A stretch of DNA of 64,000 bases from Bacillota bacterium (GTDB taxonomy: Bacteria > Bacillota > Ch66 > Ch109), in assembly GCA_050952625.1 (NCBI GenBank), contig JBMNLH010000001.1, positions 960,001-1,024,000 on the forward strand, written 5' to 3'. The position numbers and the translations under genes were made by a program. Below the pieces are notes generated by a model. It saw only the letters and a program-made list of their open reading frames with translations. It ran no database searches and was not told the DNA's origin. Positions 1,875-17,373 of this stretch are shown here, in pieces (positions within the stretch are counted from its first letter, which is position 1; each line of letters opens with the position of its first letter).

Positions 1875-3245
1875 TTAACTGTTGTCAGTCTCAGGATTAT
1901 AGGGTTTAGTGCCGGTGTCACCGTTTTCGATAATTTTTGTACTTTGTGGTCTCTCGTCTTGTTGAACAAAATAATAAGCAGCAGCATTATTTGGTATAGA
2001 ATCAGTTTGGTTATCAGTTATAATCGTGGGTCTGTGCTTCCAAAGAGCAACTGGCGACCTAGAAGTAATAATAGGAGTATCCGAAGGTATAGTCTGGTCT
2101 TCCTCTTCTTGTTTAACGAGATCAGCTATACTATTTTCTATAATTTGGAGACGGGAGACTAGGTTAGCTAGCAAGTCATCGTATTTAGTTTGTATGTTCA
2201 GATCAGCCAAGTCGTTTTCAATTACCTGGAGACGGGAGACTAGGTTAGCTAGCAAGTCATCGTATTTAGTTTGTATATTCAGATCAGTCAAGTCGTTTTC
2301 AATAACCTGGAGGCGAGAGGTTAGGCTAACTAAGTCTTCGGCTTTAGCTCTTTTATCAAGCTCGCTAAATACTAATTCAATAGATTGAAAGTGGTAAATC
2401 ATTTCTTCTAACGGTTTAATAAGGCTGGCTTTAATTTCCAGGGTTTGAAGGCGAGAGATTATATCATCAAGAAGACCTTCATCGTTTTTTCTGTTCATTT
2501 CCGTTAGTTCTTGTTCTAAAGCTTGGAGACGAGATGTCAAATTTTTTAGTAATTCGTTTATTTTCCTGTTTTCTAATTCCTGCTCTATGTTCCAGCTTCG
2601 ATTTTTAACATATTCGGCTTGTTCGCCAGTTAATACGCCTTGTATTTGATCTAGATTAATTGTATCGGGTAGTAAGTAAATTTTAGTATCTTCTGTTTGG
2701 TAAACTAGGTTTTCATTATTTAAAAATTGTTCAAGTTCGGGAATGTCTAGAGGTGGATCACTTGTATCAGGGATTTGATTTGTAATCTCTTCTTGGTCTG
2801 ATTTCGATTTTTTCATATGTTTTTTGCCTCCGTGTTGATTTTTCTTGTTATTATGAAGCTTAGGATTTATCGGTTTTAAACGGTTAGCTTTTGCCTGGGA
2901 GGAGATTTTCCGGTTTTTTACCTTAGACGAGTTTGCAATCCGGGTATCAATTACTTTTGCTTTCGATTCAAGTTCTATCTCGTTAAGCGGTTTAAAAACA
3001 ATAGGTTCAAATTCTACATTTAGAAGTGGTTGATTTTCGATATTTTGGTCAATTAAAGATGAGGGTTTTTCGATAGCAATTATTTGAGGAAGTGCCAAAT
3101 TCCCTACAGCCTTGAACTCTTTAATTATTGATTTATGGACCTTCTCCTCAGTTGGTTTTGATCCAGGTTTTGAGCTTTTAGATTTTTTTTTCCCAATGGG
3201 AAGTCGATGCTGGGCAGATAGTAACGGTTTAACGTTAGGGTCCAT
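1875..3245 (-). CDS. Hypothetical coiled-coil protein with internal 27-aa repeats, possibly spore-associated
   Basis: 456-aa ORF with a basic low-complexity N-terminus and repeated SRLQVIENDL.DLNIQTKYDDLLANLV; AAGGAG RBS; sigma-K-like promoter upstream. Confidence 0.65.
   Translation of the reverse strand: MDPNVKPLLSAQHRLPIGKKKSKSSKPGSKPTEEKVHKSIIKEFKAVGNLALPQIIAIEKPSSLIDQNIENQPLLNVEFEPIVFKPLNEIELESKAKVIDTRIANSSKVKNRKISSQAKANRLKPINPKLHNNKKNQHGGKKHMKKSKSDQEEITNQIPDTSDPPLDIPELEQFLNNENLVYQTEDTKIYLLPDTINLDQIQGVLTGEQAEYVKNRSWNIEQELENRKINELLKNLTSRLQALEQELTEMNRKNDEGLLDDIISRLQTLEIKASLIKPLEEMIYHFQSIELVFSELDKRAKAEDLVSLTSRLQVIENDLTDLNIQTKYDDLLANLVSRLQVIENDLADLNIQTKYDDLLANLVSRLQIIENSIADLVKQEEEDQTIPSDTPIITSRSPVALWKHRPTIITDNQTDSIPNNAAAYYFVQQDERPQSTKIIENGDTGTKPYNPETDNS
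2132..2330 (-). repeat. 81-bp intragenic tandem repeat (about 2.4 copies)
   Basis: GGAGACGGGAGACTAGGTTAGCTAGCAAGTCATCGTATTTAGTTTGTAT occurs at 2147 and 2228, 81 bp apart. Confidence 0.9.
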
Positions 3246-4631: not shown

Positions 4632-4815
4632 GTAATTAAACTCGCTCCTTTCAAGCCTCTCGTGTAAAACTGATTAGGTTTGCGTTTTCCGGCTTATTGC
4701 TTACTGATTCTACAAATAAAGCACTTTTTCCTGCTAGCGGATAGGAAGAGTTGTCAAAGAAGATTGAAAAATCAAGCGGGTAAAACACAGGTATCAATTA
4801 GTTGTTAATTGCAAA

Positions 4816-4839
4816 TAACCCGCCTATACCGGCGGGTTA
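4816..4839 (-). terminator. Hairpin downstream of the sigK 3' half, probable sigK terminator
   Basis: TAACCCGCC-tatacc-GGCGGGTTA perfect 9-bp stem about 70 nt past the sigK stop. Confidence 0.6.
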
Positions 4840-4908
4840 AATTATGATTTAGCAGTAAGGGCAATTCAGTTTTATAATATAATGGACCGAATATTATCAA
4901 ACGAATAA

Positions 4909-5202
4909 TTATGGTTTGTATTTATTGGATGGGGAATCCATTGACAGTTCGCGCATCAGTTTTTGAATGGCTCGCTTCTCAATCCGACTAACATAACTCC
5001 TGGAGATTCCTAACATCCTAGCTATTTCTCGCTGGGTTTTTCGAAAACTGTTAAACAATCCAAAACGTAAGACTAGGACGTTTCTTTCGCGTGGGGATAG
5101 TCGTTTGACTCTTTCACGTAATCGGTCTTCCTCAAAACGTCCCTCTACTGTCTCTTGAACTATCTCCGGTTCAGTGCCTAGAACATCTAGCAGGGTGATT
5201 TC
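4909..5202 (-). CDS. sigK: sigK 3' half (spoIIIC-like; sigma regions 3-4), no start codon of its own
   Basis: Manual minus-strand translation: EITLLDVLGTEPEIVQETVEGRFEEDRLRERVKRLSPRERNVLVLRFGLFNSFRKTQREIARMLGISRSYVSRIEKRAIQKLMRELSMDSPSNKYKP*. It contains the sigma-K region 4 HTH TQREIA..LGISRSYVSRIEK. Not in the ORF track. Confidence 0.95.
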   Translation of the reverse strand, partial: EITLLDVLGTEPEIVQETVEGRFEEDRLRERVKRLSPRERNVLVLRFGLFNSFRKTQREIARMLGISRSYVSRIEKRAIQKLMRELSMDSPSNKYKP

Positions 5203-5226
5203 GTTAACCTCTCCATGTTATCTATT
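5178..5226 (-). other. Left recombination site (attR-like hybrid: P arm plus sigK B' arm); core GA at 5202-5201
   Basis: Minus strand reads ATAGATAAC-ATGGAGAGG-TTAAC-[GA]-AATCACCCTGCTAGAT; its P arm is the inverted mirror of the P' arm at 9648-9670. Confidence 0.85.
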
Positions 5227-5247
5227 GTATTAACCCGAGACAAAAGA

Positions 5248-5510
5248 CTACTTTTTATAAATGTCTCCGCGTGGCCCGATGACCTCAATAATTATTAATT
5301 GATCTTCAATTATAAGGTCATAAATAATCCGTATGTCGCCAATGCGACCCCTGTACTTCTGATTAAAGCCCCGTAACTGCTTAATATTTGTCCGCTGAGG
5401 GGATCAACGGAAATGGCTTCAATTGCAGCCGCAATACGTTTTTGGGTAGCCCTATCAACACGTTTAAGATAGTTGCGAGGCTGAGCTAACAGCTTGACCT
5501 CATAGGTCAA
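5248..5510 (-). pseudogene. RelE/ParE-family toxin, frameshifted near 5390
   Basis: A TTG start overlaps the antitoxin stop. MTYEVKLLAQPRNYLKRVDRATQKRIAAAIEAISVDPLSG continues in another frame as NIKQLRGFNQKYRGRIGDIRIIYDLIIEDQLIIIEVIGPRGDIYKK*, a typical RelE C-terminus. Confidence 0.8.
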
Positions 5511-5877
5511 GTTCTCGTTTGAGCTCATCCCAGCTAACGCCACCTTTCCGACGTTGTTCCTTACTCAAGGCTGCTATTTCATTTTCTGGCCAATCTAAGT
5601 AAATAGTATCTTGGCAGGAAGGGCAGATGAATTCATCATGCCAGGTTTTAGTTTCATCCGTGTTTGGATTATCCAGTAGATCAGCTAACACTAGGGGTGT
5701 GCTGCATGTGGTACAAAACGGGTCAATGTAGAAGGGGCTGCTCCCAGGCCGTGGTATGACCGCACTTTCTGGTTGTACCCTTTCTACTAGTTTTTCAAGA
5801 TACTTTTTGGCTCTCTCTATGTTTTGCTCCGGAAGCCTAGCAACTAGGCGGTAAAGCTCTTCCTTGGGTAAGCTCAT
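5500..5877 (-). CDS. Putative antitoxin with inserted CxxC...CxxC zinc ribbon
   Basis: Upstream of and overlapping relE; N-terminal KEELYRLVARLPE and C-terminal SWDELKRELDL are typical of small RelE partners; central CTTC and CPSC motifs. Confidence 0.65.
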   Translation of the reverse strand: MSLPKEELYRLVARLPEQNIERAKKYLEKLVERVQPESAVIPRPGSSPFYIDPFCTTCSTPLVLADLLDNPNTDETKTWHDEFICPSCQDTIYLDWPENEIAALSKEQRRKGGVSWDELKRELDL

Positions 5878-6026
5878 TAAAAATCATCCCTTCTGCTTTT
5901 CCCATTTTTTCTACCTTTCCCACAGTACTTTAGGTAGTTTTACCCCCTTCAACAATTAATCCAGTCTCTGGAGAGTAGCGTACATAATTATATTACCAAT
6001 TAGTTACTATAACTGTAAATTATAAT

Positions 6027-7598
6027 TCATATTAATAGATAAACATTAAGCGTAAAGTTATCAAGCCTTGCGCTTTTTTCTTTATAATACACGGCTTTAT
6101 CTACGATAGTTTTAAGTAGTGTATTTTTCTTTACTACATCGTCGGTGGCTTGGTAAGCGTCCAGGACATGCCGAATGGTCGGGATGATCTGCTGGTGGGT
6201 GCGCTCCCGTTCCTCAATTTCATTTATTTCATCCTGAACCTGTTGCAGAGACTTGCTCGCGGCCTCGATCCTCTCAGTAACAATCTTATTGCGTTCAAGG
6301 TAGGTGGGTATATCATAGACACCCTGTTCCAGAAGGTCCTGGAGGCGTGACTTTTGCTTTTGCAGTTCCTCTAGCTGCCTGGTCAAGTTCTCGATAACCG
6401 AATTAGGTATAAGCGGTTCAGCCGTGGCCGCTATCTCCCGGGCCAGTTGCTCCTGGTTCAGTTCTAAGTTTGCTAACTCTTCCTCCAAGGTTTGCAACAA
6501 CCTTTTTTCAACAAAACTGAAAAGGGACGATTTGTTGTCACATCCTGCATGGATGCATTTACACATATTAGATTTGTGTCCGGACTTTTGTTTATTGGAT
6601 TGTAAAACCATTCGGCGTCCGCATTTGCCACAAACGATCAGACCGGCTAAAGGATTTTTAGGTTTCGTCTTTGTGCGCACAACAGTATTTTTTTTAAGGT
6701 TGTTTTGTGCAGCATAAAAAATATCCTTCTCGATTAAAGGTTCATGCTTCCCTTCTACATCAATCCACTGCTCCCTGGGACGAGCATAACCTATTTTACG
6801 GGATCGATCCCGATATTTCTTTTTCCACTGAATTCGTCCGATATAAACCTCATTGCTAAGTATAAAACGAACAACAGAAGGTTCCCAAACACCTCCTCTA
6901 ACCGGGCTTTTAACCTTCATTTCATTTAATCGATTAGCAATTCTAGTACTGCCAATAGGGTTGCCATCGTTACCATTAACGTACCAGTTATAAATTAGAC
7001 GAACAATTTCAGCATCTTTATTGGGGATCAGGACCTTATCAGGCCCTCGATCGTAGCCAAAAGGGGGACGGGTCCCGATATACTTCCCGTCCTTAACCGC
7101 CATTACCCGACCCCGTTGAAGACGCTTGTTGATAATCTTCAGTTCCCGTCTAGCCATGAAAGCCTCGAATTCGCTCCATTCTTCATCGAGCTCATCATCC
7201 AAGTCATACACCTTCCGAGGGGTAATGATGAGGGTAGAGGAGGCTTTAAACGCCGCCAGAATGGTCCCCTGATCAATCATGTCGCCCCGTCCAAGCCGGT
7301 CCAGATCCATGCATAGGACCGCATCATATTCACCCGCTTCAACTTCATGGAGGAGGCGTTGCATTTCTGGACGGTCTGATATATGTTCGCCACTAACAAT
7401 TTCTTCGAAAATGGATACTACGTTAAGACGGTTGCGCTGGGCCAGTTCGGTAAGAGCTTTGCGATGCTTAGATAAAGTATCACCTTCACCCCGAGATTCA
7501 GCTTCAAAATCTGCCCGGGATTTACGAAGATACATGGCTACTTTATTAAGATCACGAGGAAAATCGGCTGGCAAGATAAACACCCCTGACGATAACAT
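6027..7598 (-). CDS. Large serine recombinase (SpoIVCA-like role predicted)
   Basis: YLRKS catalytic motif, RPEMQRLL, DLDRLGR, recombinase domain (PFGY, YIGRIQW), zinc ribbon LAGLIVCGKCG...CKC...C, then a coiled coil; 523 aa. Confidence 0.95.
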   Translation of the reverse strand: MLSSGVFILPADFPRDLNKVAMYLRKSRADFEAESRGEGDTLSKHRKALTELAQRNRLNVVSIFEEIVSGEHISDRPEMQRLLHEVEAGEYDAVLCMDLDRLGRGDMIDQGTILAAFKASSTLIITPRKVYDLDDELDEEWSEFEAFMARRELKIINKRLQRGRVMAVKDGKYIGTRPPFGYDRGPDKVLIPNKDAEIVRLIYNWYVNGNDGNPIGSTRIANRLNEMKVKSPVRGGVWEPSVVRFILSNEVYIGRIQWKKKYRDRSRKIGYARPREQWIDVEGKHEPLIEKDIFYAAQNNLKKNTVVRTKTKPKNPLAGLIVCGKCGRRMVLQSNKQKSGHKSNMCKCIHAGCDNKSSLFSFVEKRLLQTLEEELANLELNQEQLAREIAATAEPLIPNSVIENLTRQLEELQKQKSRLQDLLEQGVYDIPTYLERNKIVTERIEAASKSLQQVQDEINEIEERERTHQQIIPTIRHVLDAYQATDDVVKKNTLLKTIVDKAVYYKEKSARLDNFTLNVYLLI

Positions 7599-7641
7599 CT
7601 TTATCTATTGTTATTCGTCGAGGAGAGGGGAATTCCTGCAG

Positions 7642-7836
7642 TTACTTCCTTAACTCCAAGCGTAGCTGAATCAGTACCAACCGCAATTTCCCCATAAGTC
7701 TAATCAATTCCTCCCATAAGCGAAACTGGGTCAACGGGGAGCCAGTAAATGTTTGCTCGTTTGATAACCACCTGGCCAGCCCGAGTGTTCTTTCGACACG
7801 TGGATCGCTAGGTAAAACATCAGTCCTTTTCATCAT
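7642..7836 (-). CDS. Small hypothetical ORF immediately upstream of the recombinase
   Basis: 64-aa ORF with an AAGGA RBS, co-oriented with the recombinase; no recognisable motif. Confidence 0.35.
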   Translation of the reverse strand: MMKRTDVLPSDPRVERTLGLARWLSNEQTFTGSPLTQFRLWEELIRLMGKLRLVLIQLRLELRK

Positions 7837-8027
7837 AAATTCCTTGAATCCCTAGTAAATAGATTGGAAGTAGAATGTTAGGTTAATTACTAAACTTTAA
7901 TCGATCTCAAATTAGAAGTGCCTATATAAATATAAAAACCTGTCTTTTTATTATCCACAGGTTTTCAGTCGTATATCTATTTAATTTATCTAATCCTGTT
8001 AATTTCTGAATGTTTAATGACATTTTC

Positions 8028-8160
8028 TCACGCTGCCTTATTCACAAGAGCTAGGGCCTTTATCAACTTTTTTCGGTCCCATAATTCAATGTTAGAGTTT
8101 TTGGCTTCTTTCTGAGCCTGTTCAGATAAGCGAGTCTTAATGTTTTTTTCGTTTTCTTGT
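8028..8160 (-). pseudogene. Possible remnant of an Mrr-like endonuclease C-terminus
   Basis: Startless frame TRLSEQAQKEAKNSNIELWDRKKLIKAL resembles the A...A....VELWDR..L end of Mrr_cat domains. Confidence 0.35.
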
Positions 8161-8180
8161 CAGTCAAGAGAAATCGTGTA

Positions 8181-8372
8181 TTACTTTAACCGCTTAAGAA
8201 TAACGACTTCCTCTTCCTGGGTGGATAAGCGTTTGTCAATTCTTTTGATATCTTCCCAAACGTAACGGAGTTCATTTTTTATTGACGTTACATCTGCTTG
8301 GAGTAACTTTTGGCCTTCGGCCAATGTCTGGAGTTGTTGTAGTACAAGCTCCTGGAATTTCCCGTTATCCAT
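8181..8372 (-). CDS. Small coiled-coil hypothetical protein (true start probably MDNGKFQELVLQQL)
   Basis: AAGGAG RBS before the ATG at 8372; heptad pattern. Confidence 0.6.
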   Translation of the reverse strand: MDNGKFQELVLQQLQTLAEGQKLLQADVTSIKNELRYVWEDIKRIDKRLSTQEEEVVILKRLK

Positions 8373-8411
8373 AGCAATCTCCTTTCTGGTGCCCGATACG
8401 GATCTCAATTT

Positions 8412-8470
8412 AACGCGGCCAAGGAGATAATCGGGCGATACATTAAAAAAGTCAGCAATAACTAAACATA
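8412..8470 (-). pseudogene. Relic of an XRE-family HTH repressor (last two helices)
   Basis: LVIADFFNVSPDYLLGR matches the characteristic IADFFNVSLDYLLGR end of HTH_3 domains; the N-terminal helices are absent. Confidence 0.65.
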
Positions 8471-8644
8471 GCATCACCTTCCAGTTTATTATACTCACAT
8501 AATGTAAGTAAAACAACGCTCCTCACGTAAGTGAAAATAATTTGAATATGGGGCCCGACTGCTTTCGATCTGTGAGTATAATAACAAATAAAGTTGCTTA
8601 CTAAAAATATCCATGATTGGAGGTAATCACTTACAAAACACACG

Positions 8645-8674
8645 GTTTGTCCTTGACCGACAACTGCATAGATC
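8645..8674 (+). promoter_or_regulatory. SpoIIID-like box plus mother-cell (sigma-E-type) -10 upstream of a small ORF
   Basis: 8645-8654 reads AAGGACAAAC on the minus strand (WWRRACARNY consensus); CATAGAT at 8667. Confidence 0.5.
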
Positions 8675-8693
8675 AGTAGTGGGTGATGCCTTC

Positions 8694-8870
8694 ATGAAAC
8701 CGGAGATTAAGCTGGTCGGCGAAAAGAAAATAGAACGGACAACAATCCGCGTATTCCGTCCAGAGCTAAGTTTTGAAGAGCGAGAGTTTCGAATGAAGTT
8801 ACTGCACACTGCCGTTGCGGACTGCTATCGTTCGTCGACGAATCGGGTAGAGGGTAGCGGCACTAGTTGA
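8694..8870 (+). CDS. 58-aa protein, candidate recombination directionality factor
   Basis: MKPEIKLVGEKKIERTTIRVFRPELSFEEREFRMKLLHTAVADC...; GGGTGA RBS; lies inside the element; SpoIIID-like box upstream. Function is inferred. Confidence 0.55.
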   Translation: MKPEIKLVGEKKIERTTIRVFRPELSFEEREFRMKLLHTAVADCYRSSTNRVEGSGTS

Positions 8871-9145
8871 GGAGTACAAGATAGGTTGTACTAAGATAAG
8901 AATTTACGAATTAAATTTTATGCATCACTAATGTAGCCTGATTATCTTCTTCAGTACCGACACTTGGCCGGCTCCGAAACTATCAAAAAACCAATTACTC
9001 CCCCTAGAATCAAACTAATAATTGTGTTCTCAATCACGTTTAAACACCCTCTCTTTTTGATTTCACCTTATAAGCCCATCCGGAATAAACTGTAATTAAA
9101 CGCCAGGGTTTTTTCTCCAATTGATTTCCACATTTATCCTTCGAT

Positions 9146-9183
9146 TTGGACAGGCACTAGTTTACGATAACAACCATATTATG
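9146..9183 (+). promoter_or_regulatory. sigK promoter with SpoIIID-like box and sigma-E/K-type -10
   Basis: TTGGACAGGC (9146-9155) fits WWRRACARNY; CACT-N16-CATATTAT with the -10 at 9175. Confidence 0.6.
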
Positions 9184-9216
9184 TAGAGCAAGCTCCGCTT
9201 CAAAGGGGGATTAAAT

Positions 9217-9647
9217 GTGTACCTGGATCTTACGACACCCTGGTTATCCTTTTGTTTTCCTGGATTGCTCCTTTTAGTTGGATATATCACTAATCAAACT
9301 TTCCCGCATCCACTGTCCGAAGATCAAGAAACATCATGCCTTCGACGTTTTCGCAATGGCGATGAGGAGGCTAGAAATTTACTTATTGAACATAATCTTC
9401 GGCTCGTCGCGCATATTTTAAAAAAATTTGATGGAACTGGCGAAGATACCGATGATCTTATTTCTATTGGAACCATTGGATTGATTAAAGCAATCAACAC
9501 CTTCGATCCAGATAAAGGTGCTAAACTAGCCACTTATGCTGCCCGTTGCATCGAAAACGAGATCCTAATGCATTTACGAGCATCACGGAAAAATAAAGGT
9601 GAGGTATCCCTATACGATCCTATTGGCACGGATAAAGAAGGTAATGA
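9217..9647 (+). CDS. sigK: sigK 5' half (spoIVCB-like; pro-sequence plus regions 1.2-3); ORF runs on to a stop at 9726 in non-sigK sequence
   Basis: Hydrophobic pro-sequence then [57 protein letters not shown] and [16 protein letters not shown]; similarity to sigma-K ends right after this. Confidence 0.95.
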
Positions 9648-9670
9648 GTTAAGCTTGCTAAGTTATCTAT
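9622..9670 (+). other. Right recombination site (attL-like hybrid: sigK B arm plus P' arm); core GA at 9646-9647
   Basis: GATAAAGAAGGTAAT-[GA]-GTTAA-GCTTGCTAA-GTTATCTAT; GTTAA and GTTATCTAT mirror TTAAC and ATAGATAAC of the left site at identical distances from the core. Confidence 0.85.
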
Positions 9671-10119
9671 CAATTTACTGTGGTCAAAAAGTCCCAGGCC
9701 AGCGGGCACAGGAGCGTTTTTCATAGTAAGGCCAGTGCAATTTGTAAGTATTAACTAATTATAGCTTAACTTATTAAATTTAACTGTTTTTAATTTATTG
9801 CTAATATATCCAATAATACCTTTCCCCTGATTTGTCACACGGAATGAAAAAAGTCTCAAGCCTCCAGGTGTTATACGGACGTGCCAAGAAAACAATAGTT
9901 TTTCTCCGTCGATTCCGGTAAACGTATGCTCGTCTTTAAAACGAATTATTGTTTCTGGGCTTTCTGGAGTAAACTTACTTGAAAATTGACTAGGGTCAAA
10001 TTTTCCAGGTTGCCATCTAGTAAATTATTTGTTTAACTCATCTAATTAAAAAGTTTAATGCAACACTAATAATCAGGCTAACGAAAGATTCTTAAACTCA
10101 ACTGGAATCTATGGTTGAC

Positions 10120-10148
10120 TTGAGGCAATGTTTGGATGATGTTATAAT
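10120..10148 (+). promoter_or_regulatory. sigma-A-type promoter of the yqeG-aroE unit
   Basis: TTGAGG-N17-TATAAT with an extended TG. Confidence 0.5.
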
Positions 10149-10162
10149 GATAAACGAATTGC

Positions 10163-10693
10163 ATGGAGGGTATCGTTTTGAAGAAGAAAATCATCCAGTT
10201 GCTGAGACCGAAGCTTTTTGTCAGATCAATAACGGATGTTACTCCGGACATCCTTGATTCTTTTCAGGTTAAAGGGATTATCATAGACCTGGATAATACC
10301 CTTACTCCATGGCAAAGCGAGTTTTTAGCCCCAGATAATATTCGTTGGCTCAATACTATTAAGAGCCACGGTTTTCAAGTCTGTCTAGTTAGTAATAATA
10401 AGGGCGAAAGAATAAAGAAGATTGCCAGCATCTTGGATATTCCTTTTGTGGCCAAGGCCTCTAAACCCCGGCGACGGGCTTTCTTAAAGGGAATGAAAGC
10501 CATTGGGACTAAGCCTCAAGAAACAGCAGTAATTGGCGATCAGGTTTTTACTGATGTTTTAGGCGGAAACAGACTTGGGCTATGCACGATACTCGTCGAC
10601 CCTTTAAGTTCATATGAATTTGTTGGGACCCGTTTAATGCGGATTCCCGAGCGAGCGGTGCTAAACCTAATTCGGAGGCCGAATAAGTTATGA
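10163..10693 (+). CDS. yqeG: YqeG family HAD IIIA phosphatase
   Basis: DLDNTL, VSNN, KP and IGDQVFTDVLGGNRLG motifs. Confidence 0.92.
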   Translation: MEGIVLKKKIIQLLRPKLFVRSITDVTPDILDSFQVKGIIIDLDNTLTPWQSEFLAPDNIRWLNTIKSHGFQVCLVSNNKGERIKKIASILDIPFVAKASKPRRRAFLKGMKAIGTKPQETAVIGDQVFTDVLGGNRLGLCTILVDPLSSYEFVGTRLMRIPERAVLNLIRRPNKL

Positions 10694-11562
10694 GCAAAAG
10701 GAAAGAAATAACTGGTGTGACTGAAATATTTGGGGTGATGGGCTATCCGGTAGCCCATTCGCTATCTCCGGCCATACAAAATAAGGCATTTGATTATTAT
10801 GAATTAGATAAGATTTATTTGGCTTTTGCTGTACCCCCCAACTGCCTGACTCAAGCCTTGAATGGTTTAAGGGCTTTAGGCGTAATCGGGGTTAATGTCA
10901 CCTTGCCCTATAAAGAGGCTGTAGCCAGACAGGTCGATCTCCTTTCTCCAGAGGCCCAATTGATTGGGGCGGTAAATGTCTTGCGTTTTGACCAGGATCG
11001 TTTGGTTGGTCATAATACCGACGGTACCGGATTTCTGCAGTCACTTGAACAAGATGCTGGCTTTACGCCTGCCGGAAAAAAGGTTCTGGTTCTAGGGGCT
11101 GGCGGAGCAGCGAGAGCAGTTACTTTGACCCTGGCTCGATTTGGGGCGGCGCATATAAGCATAGCCAATCGAACTCGAAAACGGGCTACGGAACTGGCGA
11201 CAGAAGTTGAGGCAAGAACTGGCCTAAAAGCAGTGGGGCTAAGCTTAGAACCAAGTGAACTGAAACCCTGGGTTCCCGAGGCGGATTTGGTGATTCAAGC
11301 TACCTCGGTTGGTTTATACCCAAAGGGTGAATCGCCAAGTTGGTTTAATCCGGATTGGCTATCGCCAACTGCGTTAGTCTGCGATCTCATTTATCGGCCT
11401 CGACCCTCTGAGTTTTTAAAGAGGGCTGCTTTAAGAGGATGTCGTACCTTAGACGGGTTAGGCATGCTCTTATATCAAGGGGCGCAATCTTTCACCTGGT
11501 GGACGGGTTTGGAAGCACCGGTCGACGTAATGCGGCAGTCATTGTTAAAACAGCTTGGCTGA
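10690..11562 (+). CDS. aroE: Shikimate dehydrogenase
   Basis: HSLSP, NVTLPYK, GAVN, NTDG, GAGGAARA and DGLGMLLYQG motifs. Confidence 0.95.
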   Translation: MSKRKEITGVTEIFGVMGYPVAHSLSPAIQNKAFDYYELDKIYLAFAVPPNCLTQALNGLRALGVIGVNVTLPYKEAVARQVDLLSPEAQLIGAVNVLRFDQDRLVGHNTDGTGFLQSLEQDAGFTPAGKKVLVLGAGGAARAVTLTLARFGAAHISIANRTRKRATELATEVEARTGLKAVGLSLEPSELKPWVPEADLVIQATSVGLYPKGESPSWFNPDWLSPTALVCDLIYRPRPSEFLKRAALRGCRTLDGLGMLLYQGAQSFTWWTGLEAPVDVMRQSLLKQLG

Positions 11563-11667
11563 AGGAAAGTAGAATCAAATAGGAATATTACCATGTTTTC
11601 CTGCGTCCAAAAATAGGCACTCCAGAAAAGTGGTTTCTGTGTTTTTGGATTGCAGTAAGAATAAGCA

Positions 11668-11737
11668 AATAACACATTCGTTATCGTTTGTGTTGTTTTC
11701 ATAAAGTGGTTGTGCTCAGATAGGTATGAGTGGTTTA
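11668..11737 (-). repeat. Dispersed repeat family A, degenerate copy
   Basis: Minus strand reads TAAACCACTCATACCTATCTGAGCACAACCACTTTATGAAAACAACACAAAC. Confidence 0.6.
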
Positions 11738-11863
11738 TCTGAATCCGGAAAGCTTAATACAGATAGTGTTAAATTAGGCAGCAAATGCATGAAAATAAAC
11801 TAATTGGCTATTGTTAACAGGCGATTGGTCAATTTATCTTGGGAAAGAAGAGGTGGGGCCTAG

Positions 11864-12337
11864 ATTGCTAATCAAGGTTCAATTAAACATGTAGCTGGGT
11901 TTACCCTGGTTGAGCTATTAGCAGTATTGGTGGTTCTTGGAATGGTTTCTCTAATGGCTTGGCCGGTGTTTAATCGGACATTGGCTAACCACCAACTCAG
12001 GCAAACTGCTGAGCAAATGGCTTGGGAATTACGAGCGCAGCAGCAAGAAGCCATTGCTTTTGGTTCCTCACGCCAAATTGAGTTTTCCCTTTACGGTAAT
12101 TACTATAATGTGTTAAAACCAGAACTTCGGCGAGTTTACCTGCCCGAAAAAATCCGTTTTCATTATATAACCATCCCTAAAACGGGAGGGAACCGCTATT
12201 TGTTAGATTTTGACATTCTCGGTCGACCTAATCTTGGGGGGACGATTGCTTTGAAAAACGAATTTGGTTCGGAGCAATATGTAATCATCACACCGGTAAT
12301 CGGTCGAATCAGAATCTCCGATAAACCGCCGGAGTGA
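11864..12337 (+). CDS. Prepilin-like protein (GspH/FimT/ComGD-like), probable ATT start
   Basis: Frame upstream of the tracked ORF reads IANQGSIKHVAG|FTLVELLAVL (class III signal); GAGGTG RBS 8 nt before the ATT; in-frame stop at 11861. Confidence 0.75.
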   Translation: MANQGSIKHVAGFTLVELLAVLVVLGMVSLMAWPVFNRTLANHQLRQTAEQMAWELRAQQQEAIAFGSSRQIEFSLYGNYYNVLKPELRRVYLPEKIRFHYITIPKTGGNRYLLDFDILGRPNLGGTIALKNEFGSEQYVIITPVIGRIRISDKPPE

Positions 12338-12541
12338 GGTCCACTCTAATAGTAACTATCCTCGTGTTTGAACTCGTCAGCAGGCAGATTGGGAACGAAA
12401 ATAAATGATGCAAATCGTCAATCACGGACCTTCGTTATTACACGGCGCAGTCAGGGGTTTTCCTGTTCGGATGGTGTTGCCAAGTAATATGGGGGTCTAC
12501 TTAAATAATTTGACATAAAACTTTTATGGTGGTGTGACGTA

Positions 12542-13774
12542 ATGAGTACTTTACGATATCTAACAGCCGGAGAATCCCATGGACCGGCCTTGACTGCTAT
12601 CCTGGAAGGCGTACCCGCGGGTCTATTTTTGTTAACCGAGGCAATTAACCGTGATTTGATCCGACGTCAGGGAGGTTATGGCCGAGGAGGACGAATGAAG
12701 ATCGAGCGTGATCGAGTTACCCTGCTTTCAGGGGTCCGGGGAGGAGTGACCCTGGGGAGCCCGATTAGCCTGCTTATTCAAAACCGTGATTGGGAAAACT
12801 GGTCAACCATAATGGGGCCAGGACCAGAAGCAAATACTAATGAACGGAAAGTAACCCGACCACGGCCTGGTCATGCAGATTTGGGAGGGGCGTTAAAATA
12901 TCGCCATCAAGATCTGCGAAATGTTCTGGAACGAGCCAGTGCGCGAGAAACCGCGGCCCGGGTGGCCGTAGGATCAATCGCCCGAACCATCCTGGAGCAG
13001 CTAGGAGTTACAGTTATGGCGTGGGTTGAACAAATCGGTCCGGTCCGGTCAACTGAAGCCTCCCGGGAGGTTTTTGAGCAATGGCTTACCGAAGGGTCCA
13101 ACTTCTCTGGTCCAACGGACCAATCATTTCTCCAAAGTTGGCGGCAGAGAATCGAGAAATCACCAGTTTACTGCCCGGATGTGGAAGCTTCCCGGAAAAT
13201 GGTCGAAGCGATTGATTCTGCCCGAGAAGAGGGAGACACACTCGGGGGAATTTTTGTGATCACTGCCTGGGGTTTACCTTCTGGGCTGGGCAGTTATGTC
13301 CATTGGGATCGTCGGTTAGATGGCCGTTTAGCCGGTGCCGTGATGAGTATTCCCGGCATTAAGGGAGTGGAGATCGGGCAAGGGTTTGAAGTGGCTCAAG
13401 AACGAGGCTCAAAAGCTCACGATGAGATATTTTATTCTTCCCAAGCCGGCATTTACCGGGAGACTAATCGAGCTGGCGGGTTGGAGGGAGGCGTCACTAA
13501 CGGACAGCCGCTGGTAGTCAGAGCAGCGATGAAACCAATTCCGACCCTGATTAATCCATTGCGCAGCGTGGACCTCGAAACGCGAGAGGCGGTCTTCGCA
13601 GCAGTGGAACGGTCGGATGTTTGTGCTGTGCCGGCCGTGAGCGTTGTTGGTGAGGCTGCAGTCGCTTTTGTTTTAGCCCAAGCGGTGTTGGAAAGATTTT
13701 CAGGAGATACGATGGAGGAGCTCCAAAAGGACTGGGCAGATTACTTTGATTACCTCCGGAAAGTGAGGCAATAG
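12542..13774 (+). CDS. aroC: Chorismate synthase
   Basis: [21 protein letters not shown] and RSDVCAVP motifs. Confidence 0.97.
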
Positions 13775-13777
13775 TTA

Positions 13778-14368
13778 TTGAAGACCAATATAACCTTGAT
13801 CGGCTTTATGGGAACCGGCAAAACAGCGGTGGGGCGAAGTCTGGCCTCTCTAGTAGAAAAAGACTTTGTGGATACTGATGCCGAAATAGAGAAAGTGGTT
13901 GGCCTAAAAGTTGAAGAGATTTTTTCCCGCTTCGGCGAGGTGCGTTTTCGTTCCGAAGAGTCACTGATAATCAAGAAGGTAGCTGCACGGCAAAACTGTG
14001 TCATCTCGACTGGCGGGGGAGCAGTTTTAAACAAAGTCAATTGGGAGGCCTTGAGGGCCTCTTCTTATATCGTGTGTCTGGTTGCTTCCCCGGAAGTAAT
14101 TCAATCTAGAGTAGCCCGTCGAGTTCGTCCCTTGCTCCGCAAGGATCGTTCACTAGACCGAATACAAGAACTGTTAAAAGAAAGGGAACCCTTTTACCAG
14201 GGAGCAGATTTGTACATCGATACCTCTGAGGTCAGTTGCCAGGAAGTGGCGCAACAAATCTATGACTGGTGGAACAAACAGGAAAAAATGCAAGGGAGCT
14301 CGGTAAAGACATCCAGTAAGAACATAGATGATAAGATTATTATGGAAAAGGCGCGAAACGAACTCTAG
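13778..14368 (+). CDS. aroK: Shikimate kinase
   Basis: GFMGTGKT P-loop, DTD, STGGG and RPLL. Confidence 0.95.
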   Translation: MKTNITLIGFMGTGKTAVGRSLASLVEKDFVDTDAEIEKVVGLKVEEIFSRFGEVRFRSEESLIIKKVAARQNCVISTGGGAVLNKVNWEALRASSYIVCLVASPEVIQSRVARRVRPLLRKDRSLDRIQELLKEREPFYQGADLYIDTSEVSCQEVAQQIYDWWNKQEKMQGSSVKTSSKNIDDKIIMEKARNEL

Positions 14369-14394
14369 AAGATTGTAGTAAGGACGGGATTTAG

Positions 14395-15498
14395 TTGAAC
14401 ACTGTTAAGCACTCTTTAATGGTTAACTTGGGTGCAAACTCTTACCCTATTTATATCCAGGCCGGAGTATTGGAACACCTAGGCTTATTGGTGCAACAGG
14501 CGGGACTGGGGCCCAATGTTTTATTGGTCACTAATCCGACCGTGGGGGGTTATTATTTAGTCCCAGCGCAGAGAAGTTTGGAAGCGGCTGGACTTAGGGT
14601 CAGCGTGGCGACGGTGCCGGATGGGGAGGAGTATAAAAGCTTGGAATGGGCTAGTCGCCTGTATGATGCAGCTTTGGAGGCGAGGCTTGACCGACGGTCG
14701 CCAGTGGTTGCCTTGGGCGGCGGGGTAATCGGCGATTTGGCCGGCTTTGTTGCGGCTACCTATCTTAGAGGCGTTCCCTTGATTCAGATCCCGACCACTC
14801 TTTTGGCCCAAGTGGACAGCAGTGTCGGAGGAAAGGTGGCGGTGAACCACCCCCGAGGCAAAAACCTGATCGGTGCTTTTCACCAGCCGGCTCTGGTTTT
14901 AATTGATCCGGTTCTGCTCAGGACATTATCCCAAAGAGAATATATTGCTGGCATGGCGGAAGTGATCAAGTACGGCGTAATCTGGGATGGGGATTTCTTT
15001 GCTTATCTAGAAGAGGAAATAGCTAGGGCACTTCAATTGGATACCGAAGTCACCACGAGGGTGATCACGCGCTGTTGTTCGATCAAGGCTAAGATTGTCG
15101 AGCAGGATGAGCGGGAATATGGGGTCCGGACCCTGTTAAATCTGGGTCACACCGTGGGGCATGCCATAGAGGCAATAACCGGCTATCAAGCGTACCGACA
15201 TGGGGAAGCAGTCGCCATCGGCATGGTGGCAGCCGGTTTGCTGGCGGTTGAGCTTGGCTGGTGGGAAAAGTCAGACTGTGAGCGGTTAAATCAACTATTG
15301 ACCCGAACCGGCCTACCAATGACAATTCCAGGGGTTGACCCCAATCGACTTTTGGAACTGATGCAGCACGATAAGAAAGTGCTGGATGGAACCCTGAGAT
15401 GGGTGTTGCCCCGGAAGTTGGGCGAGGCAGGGGTGGTTAGTCAACTATCCGATGATCTGGTGTTAAGGTCTTTAAGGAGGATAATTTTAGATCGCTAG
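14395..15498 (+). CDS. aroB: 3-dehydroquinate synthase
   Basis: GGGVIGDLAGF, PTTLLAQVDSSVGGK, LNLGHT and HGEAV. Confidence 0.97.
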   Translation: MNTVKHSLMVNLGANSYPIYIQAGVLEHLGLLVQQAGLGPNVLLVTNPTVGGYYLVPAQRSLEAAGLRVSVATVPDGEEYKSLEWASRLYDAALEARLDRRSPVVALGGGVIGDLAGFVAATYLRGVPLIQIPTTLLAQVDSSVGGKVAVNHPRGKNLIGAFHQPALVLIDPVLLRTLSQREYIAGMAEVIKYGVIWDGDFFAYLEEEIARALQLDTEVTTRVITRCCSIKAKIVEQDEREYGVRTLLNLGHTVGHAIEAITGYQAYRHGEAVAIGMVAAGLLAVELGWWEKSDCERLNQLLTRTGLPMTIPGVDPNRLLELMQHDKKVLDGTLRWVLPRKLGEAGVVSQLSDDLVLRSLRRIILDR

Positions 15499-15681
15499 AT
15501 TGAAGTGCTTGAGAATTATAATAACTAGAGAAGATATTGGTAATAAATAAGGCGTCAGAGAAGGAATTGATTGGGGAATATAGAATATATAATACATTTA
15601 AGTCGAATATAGGTTATTACTATTTTGAGGTTTTGATAATAAACGAGATTAATCAATTCTTGTGTTGGTTTGGAGTGAGAA

Positions 15682-17373
15682 ATGTATCCTCAAAGGCACT
15701 TGCTTGGTGAAGTGATTAGAGATTTGGGCTTTATTAATCAGTTTCAGCTTGAAGAGGCCCTTCAGGAACAAAAGAATAGCGGCAAGCGATTAGGAGAAGT
15801 TCTGTTAGAAAAAGGTTATCTCACCGAAGAGGCTTTACTCAGCTGTTTGGAGCAGCATTTAGGAATCTCCAGAATAGGTTTAAGCCAGATAAATTTGAAT
15901 GGCGATCAACTTGAATTAATTCCACTTTCTATAATCCAAAGGCATCAAGTTGTGCCAGTTAAAATAAAAGACAATCAGCTTATCTTGGCGATGGTTGATC
16001 CACTAAATGTTTTAGCGATTGAGGATGTTCGGATGGCTTCTGGTTATGAAGTTATCCCAGTTTTAATCAGCCCACGGGAGATTAAATTAATAATTAATCG
16101 TTTAGTCAGTTTAAGAGCGCGGGTTGATCTGGAAAAAGCCGCCCAAAGCCTTAAAGAGGACACGGAATCTTACTTAGCGGCCAACCAGTCCGAACTACGA
16201 ACTCAGGAACCGGCAATTGAACCACTAGTAGTTAAAATAGTTAATGGAGTTATTAACCAAGGAGTGGTAAGCCGAGCGAGTGATATTCATATTGAACCAC
16301 AGGAGAAGGAACTGCGAATCCGCTACCGCATTGACGGTGTTTTGCATGAAGCTATGTCCTTGCCCCTGAAGAGCCACGGATCAATCGTATCTCGAGTAAA
16401 GATAATGGCTAATCTGGATATTGCGGAAAGACGCTTGCCGCAAGATGGAAGGATTCATCTATCTGGTGAAACCAACCCCTTGGATTTGCGAATTTCTACG
16501 CTGCCAACAGTTTTTGGCGAGAAGGTGATGCTTAGGATTCTGGATCGCCGGGAAACAGTTCCCACAATTGATAAGCTGGATCTACGCGGTTCAAATCTAA
16601 TTAATTTTAAAGATATCATTTCTCGATCCGCTGGTTTGATTTTAGTTTGCGGTCCGACTGGAAGCGGTAAGACAACAACACTGTATTCCCTTCTTACCTT
16701 TCTCAACAGCGTGACGCGGAATATGATCACTCTGGAAGACCCGGTTGAGTGTATTATCCCCGGGATTAATCAAGTTCAGATTAATTCGCGAAGCTGTTTT
16801 GGTTTTGCCTCTGGGTTGCGTTCCGTTTTACGTCAAGATCCGGACGTAATTATGGTCGGTGAAATCAGGGATCGAGAAACGGCTGAGCTAGCAGTTCGGG
16901 CAGCAATTACCGGACATTTGGTGCTAAGTACTATTCATACCCGTCGGGCAGCCGGGGCGGTGACTCGTTTAATCGATATGGGTATTGAACCATATCTATT
17001 AATGTCTTCTTTAGTAGGAGTTATCGCCCAGAGATTGGTTAGAAGGGTTTGTCTTGAGTGTGGGACCCCAATTCCAGTTACTGTCGAGTCAGCCCGCCAG
17101 TTGGGCATCAACCCTGAAAATGCCCAATTAAGGCAAGGTCAGGGGTGCTCTTGGTGTGGTGATACCGGCTACTGGGGTCGGATGGCGATCCATGAGGTTA
17201 TGGTGATAACCCCTGAAATTCAAGAATTGATCAGGCAGCAAGTGCCCGAAGGGATATTGGAAAAGACTGCGGTTGCTCAAGGAATGATAACCCTCAGGCA
17301 GGATGGTCTGGACAAGGCTTTACTGGGCGAAACCGCTATTGAAGAGGTTTTGAATGCTGTTGATCAGTATTAG
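15682..17373 (+). CDS. pilB: Type IV pilus/T2SS assembly ATPase with N-terminal MshEN-like domain
   Basis: RLGEVLLEKG MshEN-like motif, ASDIHIEP, GPTGSGKTT, LRQDPDVIMVGEIRD and zinc Cys pairs. Confidence 0.92.
   Translation: MYPQRHLLGEVIRDLGFINQFQLEEALQEQKNSGKRLGEVLLEKGYLTEEALLSCLEQHLGISRIGLSQINLNGDQLELIPLSIIQRHQVVPVKIKDNQLILAMVDPLNVLAIEDVRMASGYEVIPVLISPREIKLIINRLVSLRARVDLEKAAQSLKEDTESYLAANQSELRTQEPAIEPLVVKIVNGVINQGVVSRASDIHIEPQEKELRIRYRIDGVLHEAMSLPLKSHGSIVSRVKIMANLDIAERRLPQDGRIHLSGETNPLDLRISTLPTVFGEKVMLRILDRRETVPTIDKLDLRGSNLINFKDIISRSAGLILVCGPTGSGKTTTLYSLLTFLNSVTRNMITLEDPVECIIPGINQVQINSRSCFGFASGLRSVLRQDPDVIMVGEIRDRETAELAVRAAITGHLVLSTIHTRRAAGAVTRLIDMGIEPYLLMSSLVGVIAQRLVRRVCLECGTPIPVTVESARQLGINPENAQLRQGQGCSWCGDTGYWGRMAIHEVMVITPEIQELIRQQVPEGILEKTAVAQGMITLRQDGLDKALLGETAIEEVLNAVDQY

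Follow-up and report, generated by a model that had tools for sequence, protein, structure and literature searches.

How can a gene for a sporulation sigma factor be made whole when its two halves lie on opposite strands of the chromosome? This question is raised by sigK in the window analyzed here, a stretch of 64,000 nucleotides (nt) from a Bacillota bacterium (assembly GCA_050952625.1, contig JBMNLH010000001.1, positions 960,001 to 1,024,000), in which the 5′ part of the gene is found on the plus strand and the 3′ part to its left on the minus strand (Table 1). The window belongs to an anaerobic-digester metagenome-assembled draft genome (G000; 2.9 Mb in 9 contigs, 95.9% complete), and its main point of comparison is a genome of the same genus with intact sigK (G001). 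The answer that we favor, with a rough probability of 0.58, is that sigK is switched on by a DNA inversion in the mother cell, which would be carried out by a large serine recombinase (LSR) together with a small factor, and that the cassette involved, which is bounded by insertion sequence (IS) ends, landed next to an intact sigK.

Both halves are recognizable as parts of one sigma factor. In translation, the 5′ part is a pro-sigma-K-like open frame that runs from its GTG without a stop codon, and the 3′ part reads EITLLDVLG...SRSYVSRIEK... up to its stop; it lacks a start codon and is directly preceded by stop codons. Pfam domain Sigma70_r2 is found in the 5′ part (E 1e-19) and Sigma70_r4 in the 3′ part (E 2e-16), and the NCBIfam model TIGR02846 (spore_sigmaK) is matched from position 12 to 140 by the former (223.3 bits) and from 141 to 226 by the latter (106.5 bits). 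The two parts thus meet exactly at model positions 140/141, and their summed score exceeds the cut-off of 298.65 bits that neither reaches alone. An earlier reading of the window, made from the sequence only, had counted 431 + 292 = 723 nt for the two opposite-strand halves joined at a shared GA and had predicted an uninterrupted pro-sigma-K of 240 amino acids (aa). Arithmetic and geometry are both right, and an exchange simulated at the GA cores (9646-9647 on the plus strand and 5202-5201 on the minus strand) yields this 240-aa frame, which agrees with intact sigK of G001 in 229 of 241 alignment columns. Divergence from G001 at nonsynonymous (dN) and synonymous (dS) sites amounts to 0.020 and 0.304 in the 5′ part (dN/dS 0.066) and to 0.010 and 0.119 in the 3′ part (dN/dS 0.085). 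An intact sigK elsewhere was searched for genome-wide and none was found in the 95.9%-complete genome, which leaves the split gene as its sole sigK; the next-best candidate, at C1:673881-674510, reaches 257 bits, below the sigK cut-off, and adjoins another sporulation-sigma paralogue. Upstream of the 5′ part lies a promoter-like motif of the sigma-K/E type, scored against a Bacillus subtilis consensus that has 5 matches on both strands of the 64-kb window.

The attachment (att) sites define what recombination can do here. GA comprises the only letters common to both crossovers, with mismatches on either side, and the P and P′ arms of 23 nt each appear on the plus strand as a 78% "direct" repeat (repeat family D5), the appearance that the arms of a quasi-palindromic attP have when attL and attR lie on opposite strands. 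Simulated inversion indeed leaves a 48-bp attP-like site at ~9623-9670 with arms that are inverted repeats in 18 of 23 positions around GA. A non-palindromic core of 2 bp is an established hallmark of serine recombinases and sets the polarity of their sites. Because the non-palindromic GA cores of attL and attR point in opposite directions, recombination between these sites cannot excise DNA and can only invert it, so that the sequence-only reading was correct in holding that excision is impossible and that inversion of 5203-9645 is needed. The enzyme that it had seen between the halves is borne out as well: the open reading frame (ORF) 7598-6027 on the minus strand carries the Pfam domains Resolvase, Recombinase, and Zn_ribbon_recom, matches phrog_95 (integrase, E 1.6e-112), and is intact, with all 89 invariant columns of an 8-sequence alignment. 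A weak SMC-like match at its residues 368-483 fits the C-terminal coiled-coil region.

With a draft genome assembled from a metagenome into 9 contigs, the halves might really be co-oriented and their opposite orientation an assembly artefact, a prospect that we regard as hardly credible in light of public sequencing runs. Among 24 listed runs, 18 contain at least half of the sampled words from this DNA (the RNA runs X19 and X20 contain <0.1), and junctions were checked in Logan contigs (assembled sequences, not raw reads) of 4 of the 24, namely X2, X9, X12, and X15, which come from four studies dated 2016-2024. Each of the four junctions is bridged by independent contigs in 3 of these 4 runs: among the pieces listed (29 of 61), 5202/5203 and 10068/10069 are crossed in X2, X12, and X15, and 8933/8934 and 9647/9648 in X2, X9, and X15. 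One X2 contig of 10,090 nt even covers 4700-10300 with all junctions, showing 9 differences and no gaps, though X2 is a near-identical run that may be related to the source data of the window. The repeats at the breakpoints are, moreover, merely 12-24 bp long. With the same junctions present in contigs of four public runs, each from a different study, the opposite-strand arrangement is real and the misassembly considered in the sequence-only reading is not its cause.

Comparison with G001 shows how the locus departs from its relative. At the corresponding locus (L028), an intact sigK lies divergent from a pair of yqeG-like gene and aroE, followed by an HMG-lyase-like gene, and the element is absent. 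The alignment falls into three blocks (Table 1), of which only one is turned, a block of 713 bp that consists of the sigK upstream region and the 5′ part. With respect to the ancestor, it is the promoter-bearing 5′ part that has been reversed, and the foreign DNA is present in two pieces, 5203-8933 (3,731 bp) and 9648-10068 (421 bp). While the geometry given by the sequence-only reading stands, it had overlooked this two-piece insert with its IS ends, the turned 5′ part, and the excision-type relatives of the recombinase described below.

The outer ends of the two pieces, at 8933 and 10068, match the ends of a 1.6-kb IS, one in 24/24 positions (100%) and the other in 22/23 (95.7%). At least 4 intact copies of this IS are found in the genome, each with a 9-bp target duplication and with a transposase of the DDE_Tnp_1 family, whose frame is split over two ORFs in the copy examined. 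A solo left IS end was also observed at C1:959545-959567, ~435 bp to the left of the window. The cassette has the terminal inverted repeats of the IS and no transposase inside. As assembled, both of its IS ends face right, which no transposition produces, while simulated inversion creates a left and a right end around ~4.15 kb of cargo (the LSR, small genes, and attP) with a direct target duplication on the flanks; only in this simulated state is the duplication direct, and it measures 12 bp if read strictly or 9 bp if the last 3 nt of the right end deviate. Because the IS ends and the duplication form a proper transposon only when the locus is rebuilt, the present state is best read as the product of an LSR inversion. 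In this scenario, a cassette with IS ends would have inserted 283 bp upstream of a still intact sigK, its attP opposite in orientation to the attB in the gene, and the LSR would then have performed the cofactor-independent reaction of attP with attB within one molecule to give the inverted split state. If so, the germline state would itself be evidence that the LSR inverts this segment.

We found no other consistent reading of the IS ends than a putative non-autonomous cassette. Recombination between the 12-bp inverted copies in a canonical element was rejected as an origin, given that the IS ends would then face each other across 12 bp and their identity with the IS would stay unexplained, and so was a replicative inversion by the IS, given that just two ends and not two IS copies are present. 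A joint in run X9 that connects 10068 via GTG to 7979 and carries an 81-nt loose end was considered as a circle or tandem form and rejected, as the loose end is identical to internal sequence of the intact IS; X9 is for this reason interpreted as a strain variant with an IS copy inserted at 7979. The IS is active in this population.

Relatives of the recombinase were compared as well. The closest LSRs that we found are 66-71% identical and come from a Thermoanaerobacterales metagenome-assembled genome (L033/L036/L040, i.e., G193), from G278 (L041), and from a metagenome (L035). At L033/L040 and L041 (LSR 66-67% identical), the sigK parts are co-oriented and ~2.3 kb apart. The break falls in the same codon as in the window, the GA is shared, and the arms resemble each other; these loci are ordinary minimal elements of the excision type. 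The 2.3-kb elements hold the LSR and one conserved gene, which is divergent from the LSR, lies just upstream of attR, and is a homologue of ORF 8694-8870 in the window. Such a homologue is found beside the LSR in 4 of the 4 closest loci, L035 included. A profile of this small gene retrieved 67 proteins at E <= 0.001 from 1.84 billion representatives (a word-index protein search gave 2 matches), and the 15 of them that were inspected have 53-94 aa and the common motif RV(F/Y)RP-x-L(S/T)-x-EER-xx-RMK. In the flanks of L031, L032, L034, L037, and L042-L056, the profile matched nothing below E 0.3. In analogy to GirX of gin and CD1234 of the C. difficile skin (PMC5595907, PMC5025042), ORF 8694-8870 is the likely directionality factor. 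Compared with the excision-type relatives, the pair of LSR and small gene is turned relative to attP in the window, and ~1 kb with a remnant of an XRE-type regulator lies between the two genes. More distantly, an LSR of 47% identity bounds a 43-kb co-oriented element in G102, and LSR homologues at E <= 1e-30 were found in none of G002, G004, G018, G034, and G040. L035 (Ga0074195_1000896, 11558-16378) is peculiar in that its sigK is broken twice, with a second 4.4-kb insert at about residue 66 that holds another LSR and two large ORFs of metabolic appearance by eye; its sigK 3′ part beyond residue 144 was not found within the 10 kb examined.

These parts suggest the following working of the switch. 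In the germline and in vegetative cells, sigK would be off. In the sporulating mother cell, the LSR and the cofactor encoded by ORF 8694-8870 would recombine attL with attR, and the inverted orientation of the sites would make 5203-9645 flip, bringing the native promoter and the 5′ part head-to-tail with the 3′ part for expression of the 240-aa pro-sigma-K. No DNA would be lost, as the attP-like site would be left in place, and the forespore would keep the off state. Because attB and attP would then remain in cis and the LSR alone would flip the segment back, the cofactor must stay present. That this inversion is programmed, as the sequence-only reading has it, and takes place in the mother cell during sporulation is what we infer from the arrangement of the locus. 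Of other sporulation genes, spoIVA (799.6 bits), spoIIID (139.1 bits), and spo0A (414.1 bits) score above curated cut-offs, and the sigE and sigG paralogues are intact.

Several observations weigh against this account. The role of the small gene as a factor is assigned by conserved neighborhood alone, and the gene belongs to no family in Pfam, PHROG, or NCBIfam. No sporulation-type promoter motif (B. subtilis consensus) is found upstream of either the LSR or the small gene. The 12-bp duplication of the strict reading is a blemish on the origin scenario when set against the 9 bp of the intact IS copies. The element must be young because it is absent from G001, and its intact ORFs and the low dN/dS consequently say little about present function. 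No rebuilt-state junction was found among the listed contigs of the four runs; contigs drop rare forms and minority DNA states would go unlisted, so that this absence says nothing about mother cells. A loose end in X2 behind 9648 was considered as a rebuilt junction and rejected: with a match of just 33 nt that includes 2 differences and a continuation unlike the 3′ part of this gene, it is attributed to the sigK of another organism. Finally, position 6619 is T in X9, X12, and X15, which changes a glycine of the LSR that is invariant in the CxxCG zinc ribbon of 8 LSRs (G327E); X9 additionally has T406N (window 6382), while the window and X2 keep Gly327. The recombinase may hence be decaying or relaxing in part of the population.

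The youth of the element, G327E in 3 of 4 runs, the missing rebuilt junction, and the lack of sporulation promoter motifs would also suit an accident in which the cassette arrived beside sigK, the LSR flipped attP and attB once, and no reverse reaction occurs in vivo, so that the lineage is asporogenous or becoming so and the locus decays. Its occurrence in continuously fed digesters, where the lineage thrives and spores may matter little, would suit such a loss, and the possible relaxation of the enzyme suggested by G327E keeps this explanation alive. We nevertheless consider it less likely: spo0A, spoIIID, spoIVA, and the sigE and sigG paralogues are intact; the window and X2 have an undamaged LSR and small gene and undamaged attL and attR; in this enzyme family, recombination of attL with attR in the presence of a cofactor is the usual reaction in the direction of excision, and close relatives of this LSR are found in excisable sigK elements; and all parts are intact as well in an independent case, G353 (see below).

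Switching by inversion may not be confined to the mother cell. After an inversion the two sites still lie in cis and the event could in principle be undone, and the origin scenario itself needs a flip from on to off in the germline. The locus might therefore be a heritable phase switch of growing populations that is turned off by the LSR alone and turned on by LSR plus cofactor, with only a subpopulation able to complete sporulation. Yet the contigs of the four runs show the off state alone, with the reservation that minority forms would drop out, and the LSR without its cofactor would turn a germline on state back to off, which makes such a phase switch improbable to us. Developmental inversion in the mother cell is the reading that we carry forward.

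A survey for anti-parallel sigK halves, as proposed in the sequence-only reading, uncovered a second case. It drew on a sample of 401 genomes from across the phylum. An uninterrupted match to sigK at E <= 1e-85 is present in 276 of them, and the remaining 125 were examined. Both sigK parts lie on one contig in 21 genomes and are co-oriented in 19 of them (G003, G018, G025, G030, G102, G193, G278, G043, G089, G120, G165, G201, G206, G242, G252, G258, G296, G304, and G356; the parts in G018 are 17 bp apart and may reflect a frameshift), while two genomes, G000 and G353, have them on opposite strands. Genomes with the parts on different contigs or with one part only (e.g., G004, G034, G040, G078, G177, G224, G228, G297, and G320) were left unscored.

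G353 belongs to another family, and its locus, known from the assembly alone, is ordered as follows: 5′ part (+), 594-aa LSR (-), a three-gene cluster (+), 3′ part (-), a small ORF (-), and a yqeG-like gene. Its sigK is broken at ...ARCIE|NEIL..., the site of most co-oriented elements, and the sites have AA cores in inverted orientation with arms that are inverted repeats in 20 of 24 positions. Simulated inversion of 6,214 bp produces a 270-aa open frame that aligns to residues 16-227 of G001 sigK, and the intact LSR shares 42% identity with its counterpart in the co-oriented element of G030. The arrangement can be explained by a single secondary inversion of a canonical minimal element, with one breakpoint falling between its LSR and its small ORF. 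The three-gene cluster, inside the segment that would invert, looks transporter-like from translations judged by eye. Tentatively, and with somewhat less confidence than an even bet, we propose that a transposable cassette, consisting of IS ends around an integrase, its directionality factor, and attP, can insert near sigK and make the gene a natural, DNA-conserving integrase/cofactor inversion switch that is off in the germline and on in the mother cell, and that repair of sigK by inversion arose at least twice in the phylum (G000 and G353) from elements of the excision type.

Two further genomes drew attention in the survey. In G028 (6.8 Mb), an intact sigK is accompanied by seven partial copies (model ~60-227) within 90 kb at C1:1.54-1.63 Mb. 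In G034, the end of contig C107 and the start of C211 fall exactly at the sigK break (model ~135-138) with no close LSR homologue, and the contig ends at this position suggest a repeat or mixed states there.

How does the locus relate to known systems? Our full-text literature search, which did not extend to supplementary tables (these may list orientations) and many subscription papers, found no natural sigK or other sporulation gene that is rebuilt by inversion. An inversion-type sigK in an alkaliphilic Bacillus, tentatively mentioned in the sequence-only reading, was neither confirmed nor excluded. In engineered rewritable switches of the Bxb1 type, attB/attP is converted to attL/attR by an integrase without further help, and the return needs integrase and cofactor together; the logic of these synthetic memory switches is the same, but they are man-made, whereas the proposed one is natural and wired to a developmental sigma factor. 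The Hin/Gin/Cin invertases similarly are serine recombinases that invert a promoter-bearing segment, yet these are small (~190 aa with a C-terminal helix-turn-helix in Hin and Gin) and act on identical inverted sites with an enhancer and Fis, in contrast to a 523-aa enzyme of the integrase type with non-identical attL/attR and a presumed cofactor. Mobile insertion cassettes, a concept from work on Bacillus cereus, are non-autonomous cargo between IS ends. The element shares with them two transposase-less IS repeats around the cargo, autonomous copies in the genome, and a target duplication, and differs in that the cargo is a complete site-specific recombination module and the ends are in transposon register only when the locus is rebuilt.

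A close comparison is with skin as found in B. subtilis (SpoIVCA) and Clostridioides difficile (CD1231 with its factor CD1234), elements that likewise encode an LSR, split sigK, and have attL/attR with a short common core (PMC5025042). There, a small cofactor sets direction and the gene is rebuilt late in sporulation, while the cofactor is a candidate and the timing a proposal in our case (PMC5025042). The two halves have the same orientation in skin, and excision releases a circle, whereas the window has inverted sites and the promoter-bearing 5′ part inside the segment to be flipped. Measured by skin-type features, a split but rebuildable sigK, an element-encoded LSR beside a junction, and attL/attR with imperfect arms are all present, and the direct orientation of the sites is not. 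The chemistry of such an inversion is established because CD1231 by itself flips plasmid DNA located between attB and an inverted attP in Escherichia coli (PMC5025042). Like gin in gerE of B. cereus ATCC 10987 (GirC/GirX; PMC5595907) and the 2.3-kb sigK elements, which are minimal, the window element is of non-prophage type and pairs a serine recombinase with a small partner; gin and the 2.3-kb elements are excised, and the window element has extra cargo, IS ends, and a recombinase/small-gene pair turned relative to attP.

Repair of genes by inversion is already known in cyanobacteria: a report on Calothrix sp. NIES-4101 describes heterocyst genes nifH1, nifB, and hypF that are rebuilt by developmental inversion through XisF-like serine recombinases (PMC11249958). 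As would be the case for sigK, inversion in a terminally differentiating cell aligns an opposite-strand fragment with the rest of the gene. The Calothrix cases concern other genes and recombinase lineages, no directionality factor or transposon origin is described for them, and they have the support of reads and PCR, whereas the window case is sequence-based (PMC11249958). We regard the locus as real and well formed, a variation on the skin-type rearrangement in which inversion would take the place of excision. The transposon-like origin proposed for it was unexpected, and at least one parallel arose independently. That sigK can be rebuilt by excision during development is textbook knowledge, and the inversion version, if true, would show that the logic of skin needs no elimination of DNA. 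The synthetic memory switch of integrase and cofactor would then have an equivalent in nature, and with it would come a small kit of recombinase, cofactor, and 48-bp sites that belong together. The transposon-like ends hint at a way for switches of this kind to spread and for a parasitic element to become part of a developmental program. Two independent cases, together with relatives of the excision type that are inserted in the same codon, allow a direct comparison of how excision gave way to inversion.

Table 1. Features of the split sigK locus and related loci (window positions unless a genome or contig is named).
Feature	Position	Strand	Details
sigK 5′ part	9217-9647	+	GTG start, hydrophobic pro-sequence, sigma region 2; 91% nt identity to G001
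sigK 3′ part	4909-5202	-	sigma region 4 (residues ~144-240); lacks a start codon; 94% nt identity to the G001 3′ part
Promoter-like motif, sigma-K/E type	9156-9183	+	34 bp before sigK start; conserved in G001
attL	9624-9670	+	sigK 5′ part, GA core 9646-9647, P′ arm 9648-9670
attR	5180-5225	-	P arm 5225-5203, GA core 5202-5201, then sigK 3′ part; layout as attR of excision-type L033
Segment to invert for sigK rebuilding	5203-9645		4,443 bp; simulated inversion
Large serine recombinase	6027-7598	-	523 aa; catalytic Ser27 in YLRKSR
Conserved small gene	8694-8870	+	58 aa; candidate directionality factor; 15 invariant columns among 5 sequences
Left IS inverted-repeat end (DDE_Tnp_1 IS)	8910-8933		24 bp, identical to intact copies
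Second cassette piece	9648-10068		421 bp; right IS end ~10043-10068
Target-sequence copy 1	8934-8945		12 bp; single copy in G001
Target-sequence copy 2	10069-10080		12 bp, inverted orientation (reverse complement) in present state
Alignment block, G001 L028 1-1181	11248-10069	minus	
Alignment block, G001 L028 1170-1882	8934-9647	plus	
Alignment block, G001 L028 1877-3456	5206-3627	minus	
Intact IS copies (G000)	C5:17219-18824, C5:112438-114040, C3:121452-123055, C3:125961-127564		
Small ORF	5310-5543	-	weak RelE-like toxin similarity, phrog_1213 E 0.0012; no Pfam/NCBIfam match; cargo, possibly degenerate
125-aa cargo ORF	5500-5877	-	73%-identical DNA paralogue on contig C4
XRE-type regulator remnant	8181-8516	-	helix-turn-helix end alone left; phrog_8 E 2e-5; partial paralogues on C3, C4
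Inverted repeat pair	8486-8584		23 nt, 83% complementary; between XRE remnant and small gene
Second opposite-strand sigK (another family)	G353:C1:79634-86142 = L056 4626-11143		known from assembly alone

Among the remaining features, each arm of the inverted repeat pair at 8486-8584 contains a TATAAT-like box, and the pair looks like a leftover phage-type operator. To the left of the locus, a cysteine-rich ORF of 220 aa (842-1504) is followed by an ORF of 456 aa (1875-3245) with tandem 'LVSRLQVIENDLADLNIQTKYDDLLAN'-type repeats.

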